The notes under the pieces: generated by a model
What the model saw: the letters and a program-made list of their open reading frames with translations, nothing else
Databases searched by the model: none
Told to the model about the DNA's origin: nothing
Program-made: the position numbers and the translations under genes
Shown here: positions 557-41,350 of the stretch, one piece after another
Layout of the letters: every line of letters starts with the position of its first letter
How positions within the stretch are numbered: position 1 is the stretch's first letter
Virus record (IMG/VR): IMGVR_UViG_3300045988_014834
Location: 1 to 41,350 of that record
Origin: a virus
Taxonomy: Duplodnaviria; Heunggongvirae; Uroviricota; Caudoviricetes
Direction: 5' to 3' (one strand)
Length of the DNA: 41,350 nt

Positions 557-664
557 TCTTTAATCCTTTGGTTAAGAGGTTACAGGTTAAGGGTAAATGC
601 GCCAGACGGGAACCACCCGCTTTTCGTGTGCGACACTAGGCGCAAACTTATTCTAGCACACTAC

Positions 665-693
665 TTGCACACCCCAATATAATAGGGTACTAT
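665..693 (+). promoter_or_regulatory. Early promoter: -35 TTGCAC, 17-nt spacer, -10 TACTAT
   Basis: Sequence TTGCACACCCCAATATAATAGGGTACTATTCAC, nearly identical copies at 8523 and (reverse) 20188-20216. Confidence 0.6.
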
Positions 694-723
694 TCACTCA
701 CACCAACAATGAAGGAGTTTAAA

Positions 724-5802: not shown

Positions 5803-5993
5803 GAATTATTCCTCTGATTTCGCCCGACGCTGGCGGCGCGGTGTCTCTTCTTTAGTCGATTCTACCACGGCACCTTCTGGTGCGAAACGAGCATCTACTA
5901 CACGGAACCCCCGACGGTTATATTCTCGCTTCTGCTCGATGGTAATCGGCATTGGTACGTATTTAATTTCCACTTTAATTTCTCCTAGTAAAA

Positions 5994-6015
5994 AGGGGCC
6001 GTAGCCCCTTTGTTT
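5994..6015. terminator. Hairpin terminator/attenuator just downstream of the major capsid gene
   Basis: AGGGGC-CGTA-GCCCCT with T-runs on both sides. Confidence 0.5.
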
Positions 6016-6030
6016 TTACCACTAACTGTA

Positions 6031-6999
6031 TCACTTGTCCGCGTCGGCGATTGCCAGAGTACCGAGGGTGTGTTTGTTCTCGGCAACAGCTTTGTCCCAG
6101 TTGGTCGCGGTGAACAGTTCTGCGTCCAGCGGAGATTTACCGCCGTTGGCGACATCCCAGCTATAGCCTTTCAGTTTCAGGCCGAAGCTGTAATCCGCCT
6201 GCCAGGTGGTCTGGATGCGGGTGTTACCGTTGCTGGTATCAATGTTGCTGATAATGTCAGAAGCATTATCAACGATGATGCCGTTTGCAACTACTGACAG
6301 GACCTTAGTCTTGTTCGGAGTACCAGCTTCGTACAGCGCAGGGATGTCGGAGATCACATAACGCTTACCGAGAACATCGACAACCATAACGTTACCAGCA
6401 ACGAACAGCTGGTTTGCGTTAGTCAGCGCTTTATCTACCAGCGTGTGATAAGCAGCACCAGTCATGATGTCGGTAATCAGCAGCTGAGACTGGTCGCCGA
6501 ATTTAGCGTGGCTGTTGTTCAGCACGTTCAGGGACAGACCCACGGTTGCAGATACGTCGTTAACCAGCGCGGCCTGACCAGATACCGCCGCAACAGCTGC
6601 GCCAACAGCAGTGTTGAGCTGGTCCGCTAACAGTGCGTCAGAGAAGCCTTCGGAAATAGCACGAATCGCGCTCGCCGGGTCTTCGTTAAGCCAGGTCATT
6701 TGCGCAGGCTCGAACAGTACCGGTCCGAAGCCGCCAGCGACTTTAACGCCTACATGCTCGCCCTGAGTCAGCGCGGTAGCTGCCTGAGACGCGATAGCGG
6801 CGTAACGGTCAACGCGGCGTTTAGCGGAGGCAATCTGGTTAAAGAAAGACTCACGTGAGAAGTCACCGCGCCATGAAGCGGTAGACAGTACAATTGCACC
6901 ACCGGAGGCTGCGTTAAACTGGTCAGTTTTCTGGCCAAGCAGTTCGATAGTGGTACCGACGATGTCGTCGTTATAAACCTTCATATCTGACAGAGACAT
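6031..6999 (-). CDS. Major capsid protein, 322 aa
   Basis: Follows the scaffold gene; size and composition typical of an HK97-fold capsid protein; attenuator hairpin downstream. Confidence 0.65.
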   Translation of the reverse strand: MSLSDMKVYNDDIVGTTIELLGQKTDQFNAASGGAIVLSTASWRGDFSRESFFNQIASAKRRVDRYAAIASQAATALTQGEHVGVKVAGGFGPVLFEPAQMTWLNEDPASAIRAISEGFSDALLADQLNTAVGAAVAAVSGQAALVNDVSATVGLSLNVLNNSHAKFGDQSQLLITDIMTGAAYHTLVDKALTNANQLFVAGNVMVVDVLGKRYVISDIPALYEAGTPNKTKVLSVVANGIIVDNASDIISNIDTSNGNTRIQTTWQADYSFGLKLKGYSWDVANGGKSPLDAELFTATNWDKAVAENKHTLGTLAIADADK

Positions 7000-7005
7000 A
7001 TTCTG

Positions 7006-7632
7006 TTATCCTCGTTTGCCGTATTTGGCGTTAAGTTTTTGCTGGATTACGTCCGCACCACCGGCCCCGCCAGTAGAATTTTTGTTACCGGAAGCCCCGC
7101 CGCCGGTTGCTGCATCTGCTTTAATCAGATGCGAAAATGCTTTGTGCTCACGCAGATACTTTTTAAATTGCTCTGCGTCGGTGGTGATGACATTACCGTC
7201 TGCACCTGTGAACTTGGTCACAACGTCATCGCCGTCAAATTCGGTCTTGACCATCATAGCGATAATATCCGCTGCGCTCTCATCAATCAACATTCCAGAC
7301 AACTGGCTGATAACTGATTTACGTTCCGCGCCGAGGATACGCTCAGCCATTTTGCTAATCTTACCGTCTTTCTCGGCGAGTACTGGCTCATACTGACTGC
7401 GCAACGTTTTCTCGAATGCCTCAAGTTCGCCGTTCTGTTTTGCGCGTTCCTGTTCGGCTTTCAGCTTCGCATCTGCGGCTTCTTTAGCGGCAGCGGCAGC
7501 AGCTTTCTTTTCAGACAAGAGTTTCTCGTTGTTAGCTTTAAGACCGGATACCAGCGCGTCAACTTCTTCTTTTGTAAACGTGGTCTTAGCCTCTTGTTGT
7601 TCGATAATTTCGTCTTTCACTTCTTCGCTCAT
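7006..7632 (-). CDS. Scaffolding protein (track ORF starts at a TTG at 7683; likely ATG at 7632)
   Basis: Ala/Lys/Glu-rich coiled-coil composition, directly upstream of the capsid gene. Confidence 0.55.
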   Translation of the reverse strand: MSEEVKDEIIEQQEAKTTFTKEEVDALVSGLKANNEKLLSEKKAAAAAAKEAADAKLKAEQERAKQNGELEAFEKTLRSQYEPVLAEKDGKISKMAERILGAERKSVISQLSGMLIDESAADIIAMMVKTEFDGDDVVTKFTGADGNVITTDAEQFKKYLREHKAFSHLIKADAATGGGASGNKNSTGGAGGADVIQQKLNAKYGKRG

Positions 7633-7711
7633 CAGTATGTCCCCTGGACGTTGGAATCCGGGCCACCCGGATTTACATGTCAAGAATAAATTATTCCAAC
7701 ATGCAAGGCAA

Positions 7712-7975
7712 CTATTCCAGAATATTCCTCACGTAATCCTGCAACATGAACACTTTCAGCCGCAGCTGCCGTACACATTCGGCGTTCTGAACGTCGATGG
7801 CTAAATCCTCGTCAGCGTCGCTACTTGGCATCGCCAGTTTGCACGGCGGCTGCATCATCGTCGTATCCGGAGATGGAATTGGCGTTTGCGACGGCGCGGG
7901 ACTTGAGTTGCACGCGCTCAGGGTCAAAAGTGCACACGCTGCGACCAGGCGTTTTGATGTACTTAACGACTTCAC
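7712..7975 (-). CDS. o-spanin (Rz1-like lipoprotein), 87 aa
   Basis: Signal peptide with lipobox LSAC, Pro-rich mature region, starts inside the upstream gene in a different frame. Confidence 0.5.
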   Translation of the reverse strand: MKSLSTSKRLVAACALLTLSACNSSPAPSQTPIPSPDTTMMQPPCKLAMPSSDADEDLAIDVQNAECVRQLRLKVFMLQDYVRNILE

Positions 7976-8207
7976 GGGTAATCACCTCTGATTTCGTCTT
8001 GCCTTCGTTGTCAGCGGCTGCGGCCTTTGATTCATCCTGCTGCTGCCGTTGTGTTTTCTTCGCTAACTCAGCCTGGGCTTTCTGCTGTTGCTGCGAAACG
8101 AGATTCGCCCGGCCTTCGCTCCAGCCGCTGCGGTACTGATAGATGCCGTGTGCGTAAGCCAGGATGATGAAACATGCTCCTGCTACGACAGTTGCTTTAA
8201 GATTCAT
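7821..8207 (-). CDS. i-spanin (Rz-like), 128 aa
   Basis: N-terminal transmembrane helix then charged Gln/Lys-rich region; embeds the lipoprotein ORF. Confidence 0.5.
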   Translation of the reverse strand: MNLKATVVAGACFIILAYAHGIYQYRSGWSEGRANLVSQQQQKAQAELAKKTQRQQQDESKAAAADNEGKTKSEVITREVVKYIKTPGRSVCTFDPERVQLKSRAVANANSISGYDDDAAAVQTGDAK

Positions 8208-8306
8208 GTTTCCCCTTTCTCGATAAGTAAAGCCCCGCCTTAAAGCGGGGCGCTAGTCCTTATCATTTAAACATAGAAACGGCGTAATCTCAGTAAACCA
8301 GTTACT

Positions 8307-8460
8307 TTTTACACAAGCAATAGAGTATGGCCCTTCCGAACGCGTCAGCGTAACTACACTCAGGACTTACGTCCCGCTCCGTTACCTGCCCGCGCCGCGG
8401 TCGCTTGTTCACACTTCACAAGCTCAGGAGGAGCTTAGCACACTTTTAGTGAAAAGTCAA
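8307..8460. repeat. Conserved ~150-bp noncoding element, copy A (second copy 20382-20525)
   Basis: About 75 percent identity to copy B with compensatory changes in a hairpin (GGAC-TTAC-GTCC here, GTGCC-TAAT-GGCAC in B). Confidence 0.6.
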
Positions 8461-8522
8461 CTATTCGAATAGTTTATTCCAACATTTACAATTTAGTGGA
8501 ATAACTGGAATACATAAATAGT

Positions 8523-8551
8523 TTGCACACCCCGATATAATAGGGTACTAT
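8523..8551 (+). promoter_or_regulatory. Early promoter copy (TTGCAC N17 TACTAT) driving the methyltransferase
   Basis: TTGCACACCCCGATATAATAGGGTACTATTCAG. Confidence 0.6.
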
Positions 8552-8579
8552 TCAGTTAACTTGAACAGCAGGAGTTAAA

Positions 8580-9308
8580 ATGTTTACTTTGAAACGTGGG
8601 GATTGTCTGGAGTTGATGCATGACGTACCAGATAAGAGTGTAGACCTTATTTTATGCGATTTACCTTATGGTACGACGCAAAACAAATGGGATACGGTAA
8701 TACCTTTCGATGCCCTATGGGGCCATTACATGCGTATTTCTCGCGGTGCTATTGTGCTAACAGCAGCGCAACCTTTCACTAGCGCGTTGATTATGAGTAA
8801 TGCTAAATTGTTCAAATACTCGTGGGTTTGGGATAAGGCAAATAGCACTGGATTCCTTAACGCTAAAAAGCAACCTTTACGCCGAACAGAGGACGTGGTT
8901 GTATTTTATGGCTCACAGCCAACCTATAACCCTCAAATGGAAGTTAGAGGTAAGCCCCGTAAGAAAGGTGGGTATATTAAAAAAGACGGCTCTGACAACT
9001 ATGGGTCTTTTAAAAGTGTAGAATCTGTTAGTAATGATTACTACCCCACCAATTTGATAGAAATATCTAATGCTAATAGGTCGGAAAAGTGCCACCCCAC
9101 CCAAAAACCAGTAGCGTTGATGGAATACCTGATTAAGACGTATACAAACGAAGGGGATACAGTTCTTGATAACTGTATGGGCAGCGGGACGACCGGAGTT
9201 GCGTGTGCGAACACAAACCGGAAGTTTATAGGCATGGAGTTAGACCGTGATTACTTCCGTATAGCCAGAAGACGCATATCTGAAGCATATAAAACTAAGG
9301 CCCCTTAA
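8580..9308 (+). CDS. Orphan DNA methyltransferase (N6-adenine/N4-cytosine beta-class), 242 aa
   Basis: Catalytic-motif region DLILCDLPYG followed later by the AdoMet motif HPTQKP...VLDNCMGSGTT; no restriction enzyme partner nearby. Confidence 0.85.
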   Translation: MFTLKRGDCLELMHDVPDKSVDLILCDLPYGTTQNKWDTVIPFDALWGHYMRISRGAIVLTAAQPFTSALIMSNAKLFKYSWVWDKANSTGFLNAKKQPLRRTEDVVVFYGSQPTYNPQMEVRGKPRKKGGYIKKDGSDNYGSFKSVESVSNDYYPTNLIEISNANRSEKCHPTQKPVALMEYLIKTYTNEGDTVLDNCMGSGTTGVACANTNRKFIGMELDRDYFRIARRRISEAYKTKAP

Positions 9309-9320
9309 GGGGCCTTTTAT
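9295..9320. terminator. Bidirectional hairpin terminator (AAGGCCCC-TTAA-GGGGCCTT)
   Basis: Perfect hairpin between convergent genes. Confidence 0.65.
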
Positions 9321-9781: not shown

Positions 9782-10857
9782 TATTCCTCTTTCAGATAAT
9801 CAGCAACACGTTTATCGAGTTCCGCCATCTGCTTAAGCGTGAGCGGATTCCAAAAACCATCTACAGATATTACGCGAAACTCTTCCGGTGATATACCGCT
9901 GTTGCGGAAAATCTTACCGCGCACCGGGCCGAGCGCCTGGTCCTGGAACCACGCTGGTTGTTGTTTCAGGAACTCGTAGTAAGTGGTGTCTGCGCTTACC
10001 TGAGTACCGCCGTCCGCACCCTTAGCCGCTCGTTTCGCACCTTTATCGAGGAAGTCGAACTCGGAACTGATTACCGGAGCTGTGCACGATCGACAGTTAG
10101 GATGGGCGGGGGGCATCGGCCCCTTACCAATTTCCCACGTCATTCCGTCTCTGGCTCTGCAAATCGTACTGGTACGACTGTCCAGCGTCGACACCCACTC
10201 GTATTTCTCGATGATGTCGTCGTTCTGGCGATACGTCTCGTTGCGGGCTTCGTTGGATACGTGGGACAGCGCGGTGCGGATTACGGTAGCGGCATTACGT
10301 TCAGAGATGTCCGCCAGCCCACCAGCGCCAACAACATTCTTAACAATCTGCCGTGTCGTTTGACCTTGTACAAAGCCCATCTTAACGCCGGTTACCAGGC
10401 GCGATACTTCTGTTTCACCCCAGCCATCCATCAGCTTAGTGAAATCGACGGGCTTGTCGCTTAACGATAAGGGTTGAAACTCGGCGGCGGCCCACACTTG
10501 TTCGGCGGTTGGCGTAACAAATTCCGCATTTACGTTGGCGGTAAGTGTCTTTACATTCCACCCGGCCTCATATGCCGCCAGTTCCTTAAGGTCTTCTGTC
10601 AGCTTTGTTTGCCAGTCGCCGGTAAGTCCGGTTAGTGCTTCTTCCAGGTCGCGTAACAGTTTATTCAGCCGTGCGGTGCTGCGACCGTCGTCGCCAAATA
10701 ACAGCACCTGCCGTTTGATTTCATCTCGCATTTCCTGAATGAGCGGTGCGAGGTCTTTCACTTCGCCTGATGCGGTGCGTTGTAGCCATATTTGGTGGCT
10801 GATTAGTGATGTAAGTAAGCTCATAGATAAACCCTGTGGCGCTAAAGTTAATAGCAT
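9781..10857 (-). CDS. Head morphogenesis protein (SPP1 gp7 / Mu F-like), 358 aa
   Basis: Follows the portal gene; conserved C-terminal Cys-containing region (ICRARDG...HPNCRSC). Confidence 0.65.
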   Translation of the reverse strand: MLLTLAPQGLSMSLLTSLISHQIWLQRTASGEVKDLAPLIQEMRDEIKRQVLLFGDDGRSTARLNKLLRDLEEALTGLTGDWQTKLTEDLKELAAYEAGWNVKTLTANVNAEFVTPTAEQVWAAAEFQPLSLSDKPVDFTKLMDGWGETEVSRLVTGVKMGFVQGQTTRQIVKNVVGAGGLADISERNAATVIRTALSHVSNEARNETYRQNDDIIEKYEWVSTLDSRTSTICRARDGMTWEIGKGPMPPAHPNCRSCTAPVISSEFDFLDKGAKRAAKGADGGTQVSADTTYYEFLKQQPAWFQDQALGPVRGKIFRNSGISPEEFRVISVDGFWNPLTLKQMAELDKRVADYLKEE

Positions 10858-10893
10858 ACTATAAGAAAGCCCCTTTCGGGGCTATATGTGAAC

Positions 10894-16973: not shown

Positions 16974-17267
16974 TTATTTATGTCTCCAGATGTACTGTCG
17001 TCTCTGTGGTTTCGTCGGAATATCATCGTACCCCAGCGATTTCCAGTAATTAAATAGCCGATTAGCTATAGCGGCGCGTTCCTGCGTTTTAAACTCACCG
17101 AGGTTCACGGCCTTACCGTTCTGGAATCCGCAGGCACGGATAGCTTTACGTCTGGCCTGAATCTCAGGGTACAGCGTGTTACCGCGACGCTTGTATATCT
17201 GTGTTTTAGCTCTCGGTGACAGCGGCGCAAGGCCGCTTCGTTTCAGGATGTCAGTTGCAAGGGTCAT
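16974..17267 (-). CDS. Hypothetical basic protein, possibly DNA-binding, 97 aa
   Basis: Basic composition; weak AP2-like pattern. Confidence 0.3.
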   Translation of the reverse strand: MTLATDILKRSGLAPLSPRAKTQIYKRRGNTLYPEIQARRKAIRACGFQNGKAVNLGEFKTQERAAIANRLFNYWKSLGYDDIPTKPQRRQYIWRHK

Positions 17268-17497: not shown

Positions 17498-17697
17498 TTC
17501 TCCTGTTTACCAAGTCGCTTAGGCGAGCAGATAGCGCGTACCTCTGAATCGTTGGGCTTGTCGCCCTGAAACAGGAAGTGCGCGTTCTCTGCGGCGCGTG
17601 CCGCTGACTGGCACGCCTCCATCGAATAAAACGTTTCTGATGCCGCCAGGTGCATATGCCCTGCGGACAGTACCCAGATAAACAAGATGCTGGTCAT
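17494..17697 (-). CDS. Small predicted secreted protein, 67 aa
   Basis: N-terminal signal-peptide-like stretch MTSILFIWVLSAGHMHLAAS; two Cys in the mature part. Confidence 0.35.
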   Translation of the reverse strand: MTSILFIWVLSAGHMHLAASETFYSMEACQSAARAAENAHFLFQGDKPNDSEVRAICSPKRLGKQEK

Positions 17698-18149
17698 TTC
17701 TTTAACCCGCACTTCTTGCACATCATCGAAGCACTTGTATCGTAAAAGTACCAATCGTGCTCGCATTCCTGCGCGTCTTCCTTACGGCAACCATATTGCT
17801 CAGGCACGCACCCGCCTTTGCGGATAAGTTTGTACGCCTCTGCGTCACCAGTAGCCCGAACCAGCGCCAAATGCAATTCCTTAAGCTCCGCCCGCGCATC
17901 GCGTAACTGGTTCTTGAGTGACTGCACCTCATGCGCCAGGTCTTCGCGCTGTTGCTTGTACGGGTTGTGCTCCAGACCTATGTAAGCATCGATTATTGCG
18001 TTTTCCTCGTCGGTATAGTTACCGCGACCCGCGATACTACGGTCGATACTCCACCGTTCAATCTCACCCATTACATCTACGACAGATAGCTGCTGCCGTA
18101 GCTGGTCAATCAGGTACTCGAATACTTCGTTTTTGTTACTCATCATCAA
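17694..18149 (-). CDS. Hypothetical protein with C-terminal Cys-rich zinc-ribbon-like motif, 151 aa
   Basis: C-terminal Cys cluster ending CKKCG. Confidence 0.4.
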   Translation of the reverse strand: MMMSNKNEVFEYLIDQLRQQLSVVDVMGEIERWSIDRSIAGRGNYTDEENAIIDAYIGLEHNPYKQQREDLAHEVQSLKNQLRDARAELKELHLALVRATGDAEAYKLIRKGGCVPEQYGCRKEDAQECEHDWYFYDTSASMMCKKCGLKK

Positions 18150-18276: not shown

Positions 18277-18307
18277 ATTCTGTCTCTCCTCTCGTTCGTG
18301 TAAATGA

Positions 18308-18336
18308 ATAGTAGCCTATTCTATCTTAGCGTGCAA
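18308..18336 (-). promoter_or_regulatory. Promoter TTGCAC, 17 nt, TACTAT (early-type, divergent spacer)
   Basis: Minus strand TTGCACgctaagatagaataggcTACTATTCA. Confidence 0.5.
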
Positions 18337-18575: not shown

Positions 18576-18595
18576 GAAAAATGATACGCTGCTGT
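18576..18595 (-). terminator. Hairpin ACGCTGCT-GTGT-AGCAGCGT followed by a T-rich run on the minus strand
   Basis: Read from sequence. Confidence 0.45.
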
Positions 18596-18638
18596 GTAGC
18601 AGCGTAAGTCACTCAGTAAAATCTTAAACTATTGAACA

Positions 18639-20153: not shown

Positions 20154-20187
20154 TTCTGAATTCCTTATGTCTCGTTCCGATAAGTGA

Positions 20188-20216
20188 ATAGTATACTATT
20201 ATGTTGGGGTGTGCAA
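20188..20216 (-). promoter_or_regulatory. Early promoter copy (TTGCAC N17 TACTAT) for the leftward early operon
   Basis: Minus strand TTGCACACCCCAACATAATAGTATACTATTCAC. Confidence 0.6.
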
Positions 20217-20381
20217 GAGATTAGTTACGTTGCCGTTGTGATTCTTTCGTTTCTTAAAAGAGTACGCAACGCAGTGGGTGGGCGTTAGCCCACCCCAGCG
20301 GAGTGAAGTACTCTCTACATTGCTTACGGCAACTATAGAAACTTTTAATTATCAGTGACTTGGGTATTTAGGCGGGATTAA

Positions 20382-20525
20382 CAATAGACTTTGGCCCTTC
20401 CGAAAGCGCCAGCGGAACTACACTCAAGTGCCTAATGGCACGCGTTGCGTTCCCTGCCGCTCCGCGGTCGCTTGCGATATCTCACAAGCTCAGTGAAGCT
20501 TAGCATATTTTTAAGTAAAAGTCAA
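20382..20525. repeat. Conserved ~150-bp noncoding element, copy B
   Basis: Aligns with 8307-8460 including covarying hairpins. Confidence 0.6.
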
Positions 20526-20632: not shown

Positions 20633-20815
20633 ATGCAGCATTACATGACACAGAATGAAGTAGCTGAACGTATCGGGGTGACCCGTCAGACAATTAATAA
20701 CTGGTTGCGCAGTGGTAAATTCCCGGATTGTTGTATTAAGGTTATGGGCCGCCGTTTACCAGGAACATTTGATCGTAATAAAGTTGAAGCGTGGATTAAG
20801 GAGAACGTGAAATGA
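20633..20815 (+). CDS. Small HTH DNA-binding protein (AlpA/Xis-like), 60 aa
   Basis: GGAG then ATG; HTH-like segment MTQNEVAERIGVTRQTINNWLRSGKFP. Confidence 0.5.
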   Translation: MQHYMTQNEVAERIGVTRQTINNWLRSGKFPDCCIKVMGRRLPGTFDRNKVEAWIKENVK

Positions 20816-23622: not shown

Positions 23623-23650
23623 AAAAAAAGAAAGGGGCGTTAAGCCCCTT
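23622..23650 (-). terminator. Hairpin terminator (GGGGC-GTTAA-GCCCC) with T9 on the minus strand
   Basis: Read from sequence; stop codon of the HTH gene lies in the loop. Confidence 0.55.
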
Positions 23651-23855
23651 CACCAAACGCCAGCCACTTGGCGTCTACTTGCAGCACTTCCGCCAGTTTG
23701 AACAGCGTCGCCGGGCGGACGTCCTGAGTTACTCCAAGCGCCAGCTGGTTAATTGCACCCTGGGAAACGCCGGCCAGAACAGCCAGACGGCGCTGGGAGA
23801 TGCCGAGTTCTTTACGGCGTTGTTCTACACGAATGCCTAGTTCAGATGGTTGCAT
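23640..23855 (-). CDS. Cro/CI-type (XRE family) HTH regulator, 71 aa, divergent within the replication arm
   Basis: ELGISQRRLAVLAGVSQGAINQLALG is a classic XRE-type HTH; AAGGAG upstream. Confidence 0.6.
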   Translation of the reverse strand: MQPSELGIRVEQRRKELGISQRRLAVLAGVSQGAINQLALGVTQDVRPATLFKLAEVLQVDAKWLAFGEGA

Positions 23856-23919
23856 GTCAATTACTCCTTAGTCAGTTGATATGTGAATAGTACCATATTA
23901 ATTATTTTAGAAAAGCCCA

Positions 23920-23948
23920 TTGACAAGTGAATAGCTCGCTATTATAGT
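23920..23948 (+). promoter_or_regulatory. Middle promoter TTGACA, 17 nt, TATAGT with embedded palindrome AATAG-N4-CTATT (23930-23943)
   Basis: ttgacaagtgAATAGctcgCTATTatagtt. Confidence 0.55.
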
Positions 23949-24493: not shown

Positions 24494-24766
24494 ATGATTT
24501 ATCAACTCTACCGCGCCGTAGACAGGCGAGATAACACCGAGGCGTTGTGGCTATTGCGTGCGCCGTCAGGGGCGCACCAGATGGAAGAGATGGCCTACTT
24601 AGGCAAAGTACCACGGCCTAAAGATATAGGCCGTCATGTGTCGCAGATTAAGCGCACGACTTTCGCCAAGCCAGACTTTTATGTCTTCGAGTCGATGTAT
24701 GGCTGGGCTATGCATTGCGATCATAAGACCAGGCATTTAATTGACCAGTGGGAGAACATGGTATGA
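24494..24766 (+). CDS. Hypothetical protein, 90 aa
   Basis: Track ORF with GAGGG upstream. Confidence 0.4.
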   Translation: MIYQLYRAVDRRDNTEALWLLRAPSGAHQMEEMAYLGKVPRPKDIGRHVSQIKRTTFAKPDFYVFESMYGWAMHCDHKTRHLIDQWENMV

Positions 24767-25110
24767 CGGATAAATGGTGGCTTAATTTGCGCAGCGGTGA
24801 CAAGGTTTACACCGTCGGTGACCGCAGAAAGAACAGTGGCGCAGCTACTGTTCTACAAAATGGCAAAAAGTACATACACATTGCGCATGAAGCTCGGGCG
24901 CTCCGCGTGAATAAATCATCCGGCAGGCTTGAGGATTACCCAAAAACATTTATATACAAAAGTGAAAAGCATCACATGGCCGCTGTTGACGCAAGACGTC
25001 AGTTCGCAGGAATGTTGCGACAGTTAAGTGACTTACATCGTGATGATTCTTTCATTCCTACAGAAGAACAGTTACAAGCATTAAACTTGTATTTGGAGAG
25101 TTTACGATGA
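24748..25110 (+). CDS. Hypothetical protein, about 115-120 aa
   Basis: Coupled ORF. Confidence 0.4.
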   Translation: MGEHGMTDKWWLNLRSGDKVYTVGDRRKNSGAATVLQNGKKYIHIAHEARALRVNKSSGRLEDYPKTFIYKSEKHHMAAVDARRQFAGMLRQLSDLHRDDSFIPTEEQLQALNLYLESLR

Positions 25111-26522: not shown

Positions 26523-26552
26523 TTGACAACCTGAATAGTTAGCTATTATAGT
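26523..26552 (+). promoter_or_regulatory. Middle promoter TTGACA ... TATAGT with palindrome AATAG-N4-CTATT (26534-26547)
   Basis: ttgacaacctgAATAGttagCTATTatagtt. Confidence 0.5.
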
Positions 26553-29922: not shown

Positions 29923-30203
29923 CTAAAGAGGGCCGCGTACAGAAATACGCAAAGGAGCGATTCGAGGCCCTCGGGGGCCTCGTTCGAAAGCTGTCTTATG
30001 AGGGACGCTCCGGCGCCCCCGACCTCCTGGTAATTCTCCCCGGCGGCATTGTCTGGTTTGTCGAGGTTAAGAAAGACGAAAATACGAAGCCAGACCCGCA
30101 CCAGTTACGTGAACATGAGAGATTTCGAAAACGTGGTGCAAATGTTTTTGTCGTCGGTTCGTTTAAACAGGTTGACGACCTAATAGCGAACTATTATAGT
30201 TAG
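29919..30203 (+). CDS. VRR-NUC domain nuclease, 94 aa
   Basis: Core PDLLVILPGGIVWFVEVKK (D...E.K PD-(D/E)XK pattern). Confidence 0.55.
   Translation: MTKEGRVQKYAKERFEALGGLVRKLSYEGRSGAPDLLVILPGGIVWFVEVKKDENTKPDPHQLREHERFRKRGANVFVVGSFKQVDDLIANYYS
30172..30200 (+). promoter_or_regulatory. Middle promoter TTGACG, 17 nt, TATAGT with palindrome AATAG-N4-CTATT (30182-30195)
   Basis: ttgacgacctAATAGcgaaCTATTatagtt, inside the 3' end of the VRR-NUC gene. Confidence 0.5.
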
Positions 30204-30233: not shown

Positions 30234-30425
30234 ATGAAACACGAATATGACCGCAAGCCAGCCCGTGACATCGTACCAGGTGACATGATTTTCAACGTTA
30301 AGACACGCCAGCCTGTTGCCGTTGATACGGTGTTCGTCGAGTCGAACGGTAAACTGGTTATCGAGGACGTAACCGGTAACGTTACGGCGTTTGGGCGTAA
30401 AGAGTTAGTTCTGGTGTTGAAATGA
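30234..30425 (+). CDS. Hypothetical protein, 63 aa
   Basis: AAGGAAT upstream of the ATG. Confidence 0.4.
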   Translation: MKHEYDRKPARDIVPGDMIFNVKTRQPVAVDTVFVESNGKLVIEDVTGNVTAFGRKELVLVLK

Positions 30426-30919
30426 ACAAATTAACTAGAAGGCCTGATATTGAGGAGGCGAAACGTCTTCTTAACTATGACCCCGAAACAGGCGTATTTA
30501 CACGGAAAGTAAGCATAAAAGGTAGGAATGCGGGGGAGGTAGCCGGGGGTCCAAACGACAAAGAATACATAGTTATCACCGTATCTGGTGTAAGAATAAA
30601 AGCCCACCATCTGGCATGGGCTTTCGTCTACGGAGAATATCATAATGGTGAGCTTGACCATAAAGACCGTAACAGGGCTAATAACGCCATAAATAATATA
30701 AGGCCAGCAACCAGGAGCCAGCAGATTCAGAACCGAGACTGCGCATCACATAACACTAGCGGTGCGATAGGGGTTTACCAAATACCCTCTGGCAGGTGGC
30801 GCGCCAGAATAGGCGTCAATAACAAATACATCCACCTTGGCTATTTTGACACTATAGAAGAAGCGTCGCGCGTATACCAAAGAGCCGCGGAAATATACTT
30901 CGGGGAGTTCAGGGCATGA
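30422..30919 (+). CDS. HNH homing endonuclease with C-terminal AP2-like DNA-binding domain, 165 aa
   Basis: HNH motif HH...ELDHKDRNRANN..NN; C-terminal GVYQ..SGRWRARI...LGYF.T.EEA..Y. Confidence 0.65.
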   Translation: MNKLTRRPDIEEAKRLLNYDPETGVFTRKVSIKGRNAGEVAGGPNDKEYIVITVSGVRIKAHHLAWAFVYGEYHNGELDHKDRNRANNAINNIRPATRSQQIQNRDCASHNTSGAIGVYQIPSGRWRARIGVNNKYIHLGYFDTIEEASRVYQRAAEIYFGEFRA

Positions 30920-41077: not shown

Positions 41078-41350
41078 GATTTCTACCTTCAAAGATTGCT
41101 TCTAAGCCCATGATAATGTCTATCTCGAACAGGCTAAGCTGTTTTTGCGTAACATCGAGATAGGCTTTCAGGTCTTGCCACGTAACGGATTCTCTTGCGA
41201 ACAATACTACAGCGTCCTCGCGCGCGTGTCGCGTAAACTTAATGTCGCAATACGTCTCAAAGGTGGATATAAAAAGGGGTGGGCATTCTGGCCCACCCCG
41301 TCGCGCTGCACGTTTTTTCTTATCGATTACACCCATCGCGATAAGCGCCT
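41070..41350 (-). CDS. T-like -1 frame extension of the tail chaperone; in the circular genome it continues as 56-170
   Basis: Open minus-strand frame from the stop at 171-173 through the junction to 41070, ending in overlap with the tape measure ATG; no convincing own start codon. Confidence 0.45.
   Translation of the reverse strand, partial: ALIAMGVIDKKKRAARRGGPECPPLFISTFETYCDIKFTRHAREDAVVLFARESVTWQDLKAYLDVTQKQLSLFEIDIIMGLEAIFEGRNHG
41276..41299 (-). terminator. Terminator-like hairpin GGGGTGGGC-ATTCTG-GCCCACCCC with T5 on the minus strand
   Basis: Read from sequence; lies inside the chaperone extension frame. Confidence 0.4.
41296..41350. repeat. Second copy of the 55-bp terminal repeat
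   Basis: Identical to 1-55. Confidence 0.9.

Follow-up and report, generated by a model that had tools for sequence, protein, structure and literature searches.

The virus record IMGVR_UViG_3300045988_014834 (positions 1 to 41,350; hereafter the window) comprises the whole genome, 41,350 bp and circularly permuted, of a siphovirus in the genus Kagunavirus of the Guernseyvirinae. Over the region it shares ~96% identity with the K1H record, and a search found 303 records of related phages. Genes for structure and lysis are encoded on the minus strand, and two intergenic regions among them, one upstream of the spanin pair (site 2) and the other upstream of the scaffold and capsid genes (site 1), contain a repeated element that is the subject of this report. 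In minus-strand order, the genes and gaps are as follows (RBS, ribosome-binding site):

14230 down to 9320, minus strand: genes from terS to a Hoc-like gene
8580-9308, plus strand: DNA methyltransferase, in a variable cargo slot
gap of 372 bp upstream of i-spanin: contains 12-mer copy 2
7821-8207, minus strand: i-spanin
7712-7975, minus strand: o-spanin, embedded in i-spanin, with lipobox LSAC
7711-7633, ~80 bp: gap between o-spanin and scaffold, contains 12-mer copy 1
7006-7632, minus strand: scaffold, with its ATG at 7632 and the RBS AGGGGA upstream
6031-6999, minus strand: major capsid protein, followed by head-tail and tail genes

The 12-mer TTATTCCAACAT occurs exactly at 7691-7702 and 8474-8485 on the plus strand and nowhere else in the 41,350 bp; shuffled sequences give an expectation of 0.01 copies, and none of 100 shuffles contained two or more. 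An earlier note on this DNA had described the two copies as a conserved element upstream of two late-strand units, each copy followed on the minus strand by a TTGAC(A/T) hexamer. This description was confirmed: copy 1 is flanked by the o-spanin stop (7712) and the scaffold ATG (7632), with TTGACA (7683-7678) 7 nt beyond it on the minus strand, and copy 2 is upstream of i-spanin, with TTGACT (8460-8455) 13 nt beyond it. The search for further copies that had been suggested as a check returned only chance matches (33 with up to three mismatches, 31 expected). A 12-mer-like match at 648-659, upstream of the tail-chaperone operon, was rejected as an operator and is better explained as the −10 element of an extended −10 promoter, TTGGGG-16-TGcTAGAAT.

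A conserved dyad with accessory boxes

Relatives were collected as 47 IMG/VR loci with an i-spanin query, 58 with a site-1 core query and 46 metagenome loci, plus GenBank records; the related loci (~100) fall into five sequence clades, A to E. The features of the two arrays in the window are:

7691-7702, minus strand reading ATGTTGGAATAA: 12-mer copy 1, exact match, in the spacer of a TTGCCT-17-TATTCT candidate promoter
8474-8485, minus strand: 12-mer copy 2, exact match, at approximately −60 to −49 of the spanin-leader promoter
7684-7697: dyad O-site1, GGAATA-ATT-TATTC, invariant in five clades
8467-8480: dyad O-site2, GGAATA-AAC-TATTC, always 6 nt upstream of the −35
7718-7713 and 7728-7723, minus strand: site-1 accessory boxes, direct repeats 10 bp apart that overlap the last o-spanin codons and the stop
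8498-8512: site-2 accessory boxes, GGAATA (plus strand; TATTCC when read on the minus strand), with 9 bp from one to the next and a constant 17 nt to O-site2

Full flanks were available for 42 IMG/VR loci. Of these, 23 carry two exact copies of the 12-mer, five carry one and 14 have none. The inner dyad, GGAATA-N3-TATTC, has two copies in 35 of the same loci and one in the remaining seven, whose second copy deviates by 1 nt, so every locus has at least one. The ATGTT portion of the 12-mer is clade-specific and is replaced elsewhere (clades B to E) by TAAGT, ATTCA, GATGT, AAAGT and others. At site 1 the dyad is GGAATAATTTATTC in all clades; at site 2 clade A has GGAATAAACTATTC, clade B GGAATACTTTATTC and clade C a perfect palindrome, TGGAATAAATTATTCCA. 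The half-sites GGAATA and TATTC are thus invariant and the center is free (ATT, AAC, CTT or AAT), and this combination of dyad symmetry, conserved half-sites and a variable center is as expected of a repressor operator. The pattern GGAATANNNTATTC matches the genome only at the two sites (0.03 matches expected), and the site-1 intergenic region is present in 484 phage records. As judged from these alignments, the conserved unit is a 14-17 bp palindrome with the consensus TGGAATA-N3-TATTC(C)A. The 12-mers, which had been taken as the unit itself, are only a part of it, namely the left half-sites of the dyads plus five clade-specific flanking bases. No description of the GGAATA dyad motif was found in the papers examined on these phages.

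Each dyad is accompanied by two further GGAATA hexamers, approximately one and three helical turns away, so that the unit in place of the 12-mer is the dyad GGAATA-N3-TATTC with its accessory boxes. Six of the 31 GGAATA hexamers in the genome lie within ~160 bp at the two sites. At the end of o-spanin, 18 nt (AGGAATATTCTGGAATAG) are kept across clades A and B, whereas adjacent codons diverge. Of 48 distinct upstream sequences, 40 contain the complete site-2 array without a mismatch, and the remainder carry single substitutions. In clade D the box orientation is reversed, and site 1 has two full dyads 33 bp apart. Conserved blocks with free spacers between them, and boxes kept in either orientation, suggest that a protein recognizes these elements in double-stranded DNA.

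The predicted spanin promoter

The predicted spanin promoter (P_spanin), its transcript and their paralogues comprise:

8432-8460, minus strand: P_spanin, −35 TTGACT (8460-8455), 17-bp spacer, TGc (8440-8438), −10 TAAGCT (8437-8432)
8317-8431, minus strand: core of a structured 5′ leader RNA, consisting of hairpin P1, a long P2-P3-P4 stem-loop and then GGAAGGGCC
8222-8251 (hairpin 8232-8251), minus strand: intrinsic terminator GCCCCGC-TTTAAG-GCGGGGC followed by TTTACTTAT, directly before the i-spanin RBS
20497-20525, minus strand: paralogous promoter, TTGACT (20525-20520) and TAAGCT (20502-20497), with no GGAATA boxes
20381-20497, minus strand: second copy of the leader RNA, a paralogue (repeat D7)

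P_spanin has the hexamers and spacing of a sigma-70 promoter: TTGACT matches the consensus at five of six positions and is separated by 17 bp from TAAGCT, which has T1, A2 and T6 and follows TGn. A consensus scan missed it, as its −10 scores 3/6. Among relatives the −35 varies (TTGACT, TAGACT or TGGACT), as do the −10 (TAAGCT, TACGCT or TAACCT) and the spacer (clades A to C), while TG, T1, A2 and T6 never vary and the base after TG can be C, A, G or T. A fixed TG with a free next base is the signature of an extended −10 promoter. The earlier note had called the −10 poor at both sites, which does not apply at site 2, where the extended −10 (TGn and TAAGCT) is conserved, but does apply to the hexamer that it chose at site 1 (CGGATT, lacking A2). 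The GenBank record of fBC-Eco01 lists the homologous site as ‘Host promoter1’ (software-predicted) and also has a terminator before the spanin gene. Transcription from P_spanin is predicted to start near 8425.

The site-2 dyad spans −55 to −42 (center ~ −48) and so lies outside the core promoter; its distance to the −35 is fixed at 6 bp in three clades despite the differences in −35 and −10. The paralogous promoter has a core near-identical to that of P_spanin and is also followed by a leader-RNA copy. Since this box-less paralogue shares both core and RNA, the boxes represent an added regulatory module, which suggests that they make the spanin promoter behave unlike its otherwise identical paralogue.

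The leader RNA and its terminator

A leader RNA of ~105 nt with the motif ACCGCG...CGGAAGGGCC lies directly downstream of the TTGACT-17-TGnTAAGCT promoters. The first ~105 nt of the transcript fold with a z-score of −3.4 relative to shuffles, and a covariance model built from 14 sequences recovered 58 copies in 65 sources, scoring 135.7 bits at 8317-8431 and 105 bits at the paralogue. In the model alignment 95.7% of cells are paired, compared with 29-43% in slid-partner controls, 10 pairs are changed on both sides, and the covariation score is 0.283 versus 0.095 for shuffled alignments (none of 500 as high); because this alignment was fitted to the model, these figures lean toward structure. 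A plain MAFFT alignment still gave 92% paired versus 32-40% in controls, and the apical hairpin shows four or five pair types per position. Some Kagunaviruses have two copies, as does the window, and K1H has one; copies in related loci include L051 4614-4728, L054-L057 ~465-580 and L103 ~1360-1460. In clade C the leader is rearranged and is missed by the covariance model. A search of both intergenic regions against Rfam gave no hit at the gathering threshold and none that was meaningful at E up to 10, and BLAST with the leader found Guernseyvirinae only.

From a start near 8425, the transcript would reach the terminator after ~200 nt. The terminator stem carries compensatory variants in relatives (CCCTGC/GCAGGG, CCCGGC/GCCGGG and CCCGAC/GTCGGG), and as it stands directly before the spanin RBS, expression of the spanins and downstream genes would need read-through. 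An open reading frame (ORF) of 36-38 amino acids that some GenBank records annotate within the leader (8318-8425, minus strand; fBCEco01_09; L052 1542-1658) was rejected as a gene, as close relatives carry 1-nt indels and clade B has no such frame; the annotated ‘hypothetical protein’ of the leader probably reflects RNA structure rather than coding. An ops/RfaH-like element was also rejected, as its TAG core is not kept in the paralogous copies. This newly recognized leader RNA is the more novel part of the analysis.

A candidate scaffold promoter

At site 1 the corresponding features are:

7683-7711, minus strand: candidate promoter P_scaffold, −35 TTGCCT (7711-7706), 17-bp spacer, −10 TATTCT (7688-7683)
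7678-7683, minus strand: the TTGACA first proposed as a −35; TTGACA in 30 of 41 sequences, TTGTTA in 10 (clade B) and TTGTTG in one; TTGTCG in clade E
7655-7673, minus strand: hairpin AATCCGGG-TGG-CCCGGATT, the 3′ arm of which is the hexamer first proposed as a −10

In P_scaffold the −10 TATTCT is present in all 41 distinct related sequences (a 42nd retrieved was an unrelated match and was excluded). The −35 is TTGCCT, TTGCAA (clade D) or TTGCGT (clade E), always at 17-bp spacing across five clades; TTG and TA...T are kept, while the first seven spacer bases are free. Conserved −35 and −10 elements at this spacing predict a promoter, with a start near 7676. The promoter that had been assigned here from TTGACA does not survive the comparison. 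The TTGACA varies by clade, and the CGGATT paired with it becomes CGGTGT or CGGCTA in relatives, never with an A2, and is one arm of a hairpin with covarying stems (AAUCCGGG/CCCGGAUU, ACACCGGG/CCCGGUGU and GAGCCGGG/CCCGGCUC; the first loop base is free). This hairpin would be the 5′-terminal stem-loop of the scaffold/capsid mRNA and, in view of what is known of RNase E, is a plausible stabilizer.

Relative to TTGCCT/TATTCT, the 12-mer spans −26 to −15 and the dyad −21 to −8 (center ~ −14); overlap of dyad and core promoter therefore occurs at site 1 only, and only if TTGCCT/TATTCT is the promoter. The accessory boxes are at −42 to −37 and −52 to −47, where GGAATATTC forms a small palindrome centered near −47.5, and the second full dyad of clade D, 33 bp from the first, is centered at −47. 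A dyad-like element near −47/−48 is thus common to both promoters, and one over the −10 is found only at the scaffold promoter. In clade C an opposite-strand gene and a bidirectional terminator stand between o-spanin and the block of GGAATAG-TTGCCT, dyad and hairpin, and the block stays with the scaffold gene, which argues that site 1 is a self-contained upstream region with its own promoter.

The longest scaffold ORF starts with TTG at 7683, within the regulatory region, and RefSeq annotates the homologous long form in K1H; translation more likely begins at the ATG at 7632, which AGGGGA precedes. The scaffold N-terminus exists in two unrelated alleles (MSEEVK... and MNRFLR...), both of which begin directly after the conserved intergenic block. 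A similar arrangement was seen at 557-708 (minus strand), upstream of the tail-assembly-chaperone operon, where the candidate promoter TTGGGG-16-TGcTAGAAT is followed by a 5′ stem-loop GCGCC...GGCGC that contains CGGGTGG, as does the site-1 hairpin; 5′ hairpins seem to be recurrent on late mRNAs in this genome.

A proposed common regulator of two late-strand promoters

We propose that the two conserved arrays are operators of one regulator, probably phage-encoded, that coordinates both promoters; the probability of this reading is estimated at roughly 0.55. It draws on the blockwise conservation and the invariant half-sites, because these are typical of binding sites. One sequence-specific DNA-binding protein would bind both arrays and thereby coordinate the sigma-70 promoters that flank the spanin cassette. 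At P_spanin it would occupy the dyad at ~ −48, and the transcript would be a ~200-nt structured leader ending at the terminator before the spanin RBS. At P_scaffold it would cover the spacer and the −10 (~ −14), with the dyad-like element near −47.5 as a further site. Occupancy at −14 would compete with RNA polymerase and is thus expected to hold down or time transcription of scaffold and capsid, the mRNA of which would start just before the conserved 5′ stem-loop. From the −48 sites the protein could either repress cooperatively or recruit polymerase. We lean toward repressive control at −14 but, for the −48 sites, the site-2 dyad among them, toward neither repression nor activation. Both promoter assignments, the start sites and protein binding to the dyads we infer from sequence conservation.

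Several points weigh against this proposal. The geometry of the arrays differs, with the dyad centered at ~ −48 at site 2 and at ~ −14 at site 1; the accessory boxes change orientation from site to site and from clade to clade, which a simple dimeric repressor does not readily explain; and in clade D no array precedes the spanin leader. Across the genome GGAATA occurs about twice as often as expected (31 versus 16), partly via GAGGAATAATG gene junctions. P_scaffold matches the consensus at only four of six positions in each hexamer, and neither the consensus scan nor the fBC-Eco01 annotation calls it. The binder could also be a host protein. Finally, the literature examined contained no start-site, footprint or expression mapping of these elements for any member of the group: the one RNA-seq study, of K1B4, used coarse time points and gives no start sites (PMC12645636), and the genome papers of the group report software-predicted promoters only. 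The GAGGAATAATG junctions (5807-5812 and 9782-9787) combine RBS, stop and start codon in an arrangement for translational coupling, and are unrelated to the operator.

Three proteins encoded in the window are candidate binders:

20636-20815: HTH_17 winged-helix protein, 60 amino acids, of the Xis/AlpA-like family in Pfam
23640-23855: HTH_3 protein, 71 amino acids
14471-14731: NinH-like protein

The HTH_17 protein is 80-98% identical in 443 records, while the HTH_3 proteins of Kagunavirus and Jerseyvirus are ~50% identical. An invariant operator thus fits HTH_17 better than HTH_3, and we infer, weakly, that the HTH_17 protein is the most plausible binder of the dyads. A 97-amino-acid ORF with an AP2-like motif (16974-17267) was discarded, as neither Pfam nor a PDB sequence search supported it. 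An alternative sigma factor recognizing an ECF-like GGAAT −35 was also discarded, as the two sites share no −10 at a fixed distance from GGAATAA.

A second palindrome, TGAATAGTAcCCTATTAT (AATAG-N4-CTATT), is present in seven copies against 0.01 expected (679-696, 8537-8554, 18305-18322, 20185-20202, 23884-23901, 23928-23945 and 26532-26549) and occurs also near 30172-30203. It overlaps the −10 of early/middle promoters, both TTGACA-17-TATAGT (plus strand) and TTGCACACCCC-ATATAAT-AGGGTACTATTCA elements, and the HTH_3 gene has one copy at its own promoter; a Cro-like repressor probably uses this palindrome as its operator. In the fBC-Eco01 paper the palindrome is listed, under the consensus tgAATAGTa-ccTATTat-T, as promoters for a phage-encoded RNA polymerase; the annotations of related genomes contain no RNA polymerase gene.

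Alternative explanations

The earlier note had proposed that a late activator binds the 12-mer and that each copy serves a TTGAC(A/T) −35 with a weak −10. We regard this as unlikely, although both copies do lie upstream of late-strand genes with TTGACA or TTGACT after them, and the late genes of most phages are under positive control. On that model the site-1 dyad would be centered near −41.5 (class II), and a clade-A palindrome at site 2, CTATTCGAATAG, is also centered at −41.5, but it is not kept in clades B and C. A single activator geometry conflicts with the distances from element to TTGAC of 7 and 13 nt, since the 6-bp difference is about half a helical turn and the two elements do not share a helical phase. 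Nor does the core look defective or activator-dependent at site 2, where it is near-consensus with a conserved TGn and about equal to that of the box-less promoter at 20497-20525. The promoter postulated at site 1 has no −10 at all, a lack for which no activator makes up: the hexamer has no A2 and belongs to the covarying hairpin. Its TTGACA, moreover, varies among clades. The conserved TTGCnn-17-TATTCT, if it is the promoter, instead places the 12-mer in a spacer and the dyad over a −10, which is an operator position and not that of an upstream activator. One HTH gene is among the few early genes of K1B4 (PMC12645636), which would suit an activator. What stands of the original idea is that the repeat is a conserved cis-regulatory element of two late-strand units; its layout as an activator site with a weak promoter does not.

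Binding of the arrays by a host transcription factor or nucleoid-associated protein of Enterobacteriaceae, possibly coupling the late promoters to host physiology or to titration by replicating genomes, appears somewhat less probable still. Such a binder would account for an operator that does not vary among phages infecting E. coli, Salmonella, Raoultella and Shigella when most small phage regulators diverge, and the sites are A/T-rich and upstream of a −35. The HTH_17 protein is, however, equally conserved, and we know of no E. coli consensus that fits TGGAATA-N3-TATTCCA; to our knowledge, none of those of ArgR, RcsAB (RcsB), CpxR, Lrp, Fis, IHF, DnaA, OxyR, HipB and Cra agrees with its core and spacing.

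The boxes could also be loading sites for a Q/AlpA-like processive antiterminator, with which polymerase would read through 8232-8251 into the lysis and morphogenesis genes. The layout at site 2 does resemble lambda pR′-qut-6S RNA-tR′ and PalpB-ABE-tB in having a constitutive-looking promoter, a short non-coding leader, a terminator and then lysis genes (PMC9371919, PMC7969949). As in those systems, a −10-like hexamer follows the −10 near +1 (TAAGCT-6 nt-GAGCTT in clade A, TACGCT-3 nt-TACGCT in clade B), and at site 1 a GGAATA hexamer is placed between −35 and −10, as are the QBE of lambda and the ABE of AlpA. Hairpins resembling terminators within the late-strand operons, such as 10868-10883, likewise imply partial read-through or antitermination. 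We nevertheless give this explanation poor odds. The site-2 dyad lies upstream of the −35 and, at ~ −48, is too distant from a pause near +1 to +6. The −10-like repeat is absent from clade C, and none follows TATTCT at site 1. A terminator stands between promoter and first regulated gene at site 2, but there is none after site 1. In addition, the 6S leader is not known as a conserved, covarying structured RNA, which the leader in the window is.

The proteins do not favor an antiterminator either, as neither Pfam nor PHROGs revealed a Q-like or AlpA-like protein. P. aeruginosa AlpA has eight helices and contacts DNA with residues 128-142 (PMC9371919); it is much larger than the HTH_17 protein and Q-like, and the latter, with 60 amino acids and no N-terminal ‘nozzle’ segment, was therefore rejected as an AlpA-type antiterminator. 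A 151-amino-acid zinc-ribbon ORF was rejected as a hidden Q, having no fold match to Q21 or AlpA; its AlphaFold model (36 homologues, pLDDT 75.6) had no PDB match at E < 2. This protein (17694-18149, minus strand) has a long coiled coil and a C-terminal Cys/His cluster, and it has >1300 homologues of 141-257 amino acids, those listed being all on contigs of phage-genome size (~45 kb or less). Strong terminator-like hairpins were noted at 10868-10883 (minus strand, between the portal and MuF-like genes), 18585-18606 (minus strand, inside the leftward operon) and 5992-6011 (after the capsid gene).

It is very improbable that the repeat is a relic of duplication or gene conversion, or a homologous linker for module exchange, with no regulatory role. 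Both sites are indeed mosaic junctions, with cargo varying beside site 2 and, in clade C, beside site 1, two unrelated scaffold alleles start right after site 1, and the clade-specific identity of ATGTT is what conversion predicts. Yet the dyad is invariant over five clades in which the flanking coding and non-coding DNA has diverged, and blockwise conservation with fixed promoter spacing indicates selection on the sites themselves. An action of the GGAAUA repeats in RNA, for example as GGA motifs for CsrA or for a phage translational repressor of scaffold, is scarcely credible. Site 1 does lie inside any read-through transcript, with three GGA motifs before the hairpin and the RBS AGGGGA. The site-2 boxes, however, are upstream of both divergent promoters, two of them are reversed, and the box orientation also flips in clade D; conservation regardless of orientation points to double-stranded DNA.

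Comparison with known systems

Read as operators of one regulator, the arrays are an element of a familiar type. Like the lambdoid operators OR and OL (CI and Cro; also those of 434 and P22), they consist of 14-17 bp dyad sites in few copies near sigma-70 elements, with conserved half-sites and a free center; a lambdoid repressor can repress at one position and activate from another. Unlike the lambdoid operators, they occur in a virulent phage without an immunity region, at late lysis and head promoters, and include hexamers in either orientation. Several compact sites for one small phage protein are also found in phi29, where p4, whose sites lie between the early A2b/A2c promoters and the late A3 promoter, activates from upstream and represses where it overlaps, depending on position. 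There is no homology to phi29 in sequence or protein, and the arrays here are 783 bp apart and flank a gene pair. The boxes of Xis, Cox and TorI (lambda Xis X1-X2, P2 Cox) are ~6 bp long with ~9-10 bp phasing, are direct or inverted, and repress or activate. They are bound by HTH_17-like proteins of 60-90 amino acids; here there is no excision function, and binding by the HTH_17 protein is a hypothesis.

The leader RNA has a parallel in the put RNAs of HK022 (PMC9378689). It shares with put the arrangement of a conserved two-stem RNA right after a promoter and, in some members of the group, the presence of two paralogous copies per genome, each heading a long operon with terminators. Beyond position, overall shape and copy number it differs in showing no similarity to put by sequence, Rfam or BLAST, in its length (~105 nt versus ~70 nt) and in being rearranged in clade C. 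Tentatively, and with rather low expectation, the arrays, the boxed promoter, the leader RNA and the terminator could together form a previously undescribed late-gene switch of the Guernseyvirinae. In such a switch the RNA might act in cis, as a put-like antiterminator or as an attenuator that responds to a ligand or protein, to gate lysis and capsid genes, while the binding protein would time the promoter. Compared with the operators, which are of a familiar element type, the leader RNA and a possible switch built around it offer more that is new.

Few phages are isolated, or employed in therapy and biocontrol, as often as those of Kagunavirus and Jerseyvirus, whose targets there are Salmonella and K1 and uropathogenic strains of E. 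coli. The parts described here, namely two operator arrays, two candidate late promoters with predicted start sites, the 5′ hairpin of the capsid mRNA and the leader RNA with its terminator, are conserved in ~480 sequenced genomes. Cargo (‘moron’) genes insert at the edges of the arrays, which is useful for choosing payload sites that spare late expression.

Cargo slots and other features of the genome

The slot between the Hoc-like gene and site 2 (8523-9318) holds opposite-strand cargo that differs by phage: the methyltransferase in the window, other genes in phiSD1 and ER23, small ORFs in further phages, and nothing in K1H. The cargo loci compared with the window were L001 2709-3215, L003 4083-4525, L002 2454-3182 and L103 2196-2564, and clade C has a second slot between o-spanin and site 1. 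Insertion occurs exactly at the edge of the GGAATA array, and the cargo genes carry their own promoters, the element of the window being:

8523-8554, plus strand: divergent cargo promoter element, with TATAAT at 8536-8541

Bases 1-55 are identical to 41296-41350; this 55-bp direct repeat at the window ends most likely reflects overlapping ends in the circular assembly of a permuted genome rather than a biological terminal repeat. Within the replication module, the ORF at 30422-30919 (plus strand) encodes an HNH endonuclease (PHROG 99, E = 1e-60) and is probably a mobile insertion. The ORF at 24748-25110 (plus strand) matches the Pfam family Phage_ProQ_C_like (E = 1.6e-6) and may encode an RNA-binding protein, which would be of interest beside the structured leader RNAs.

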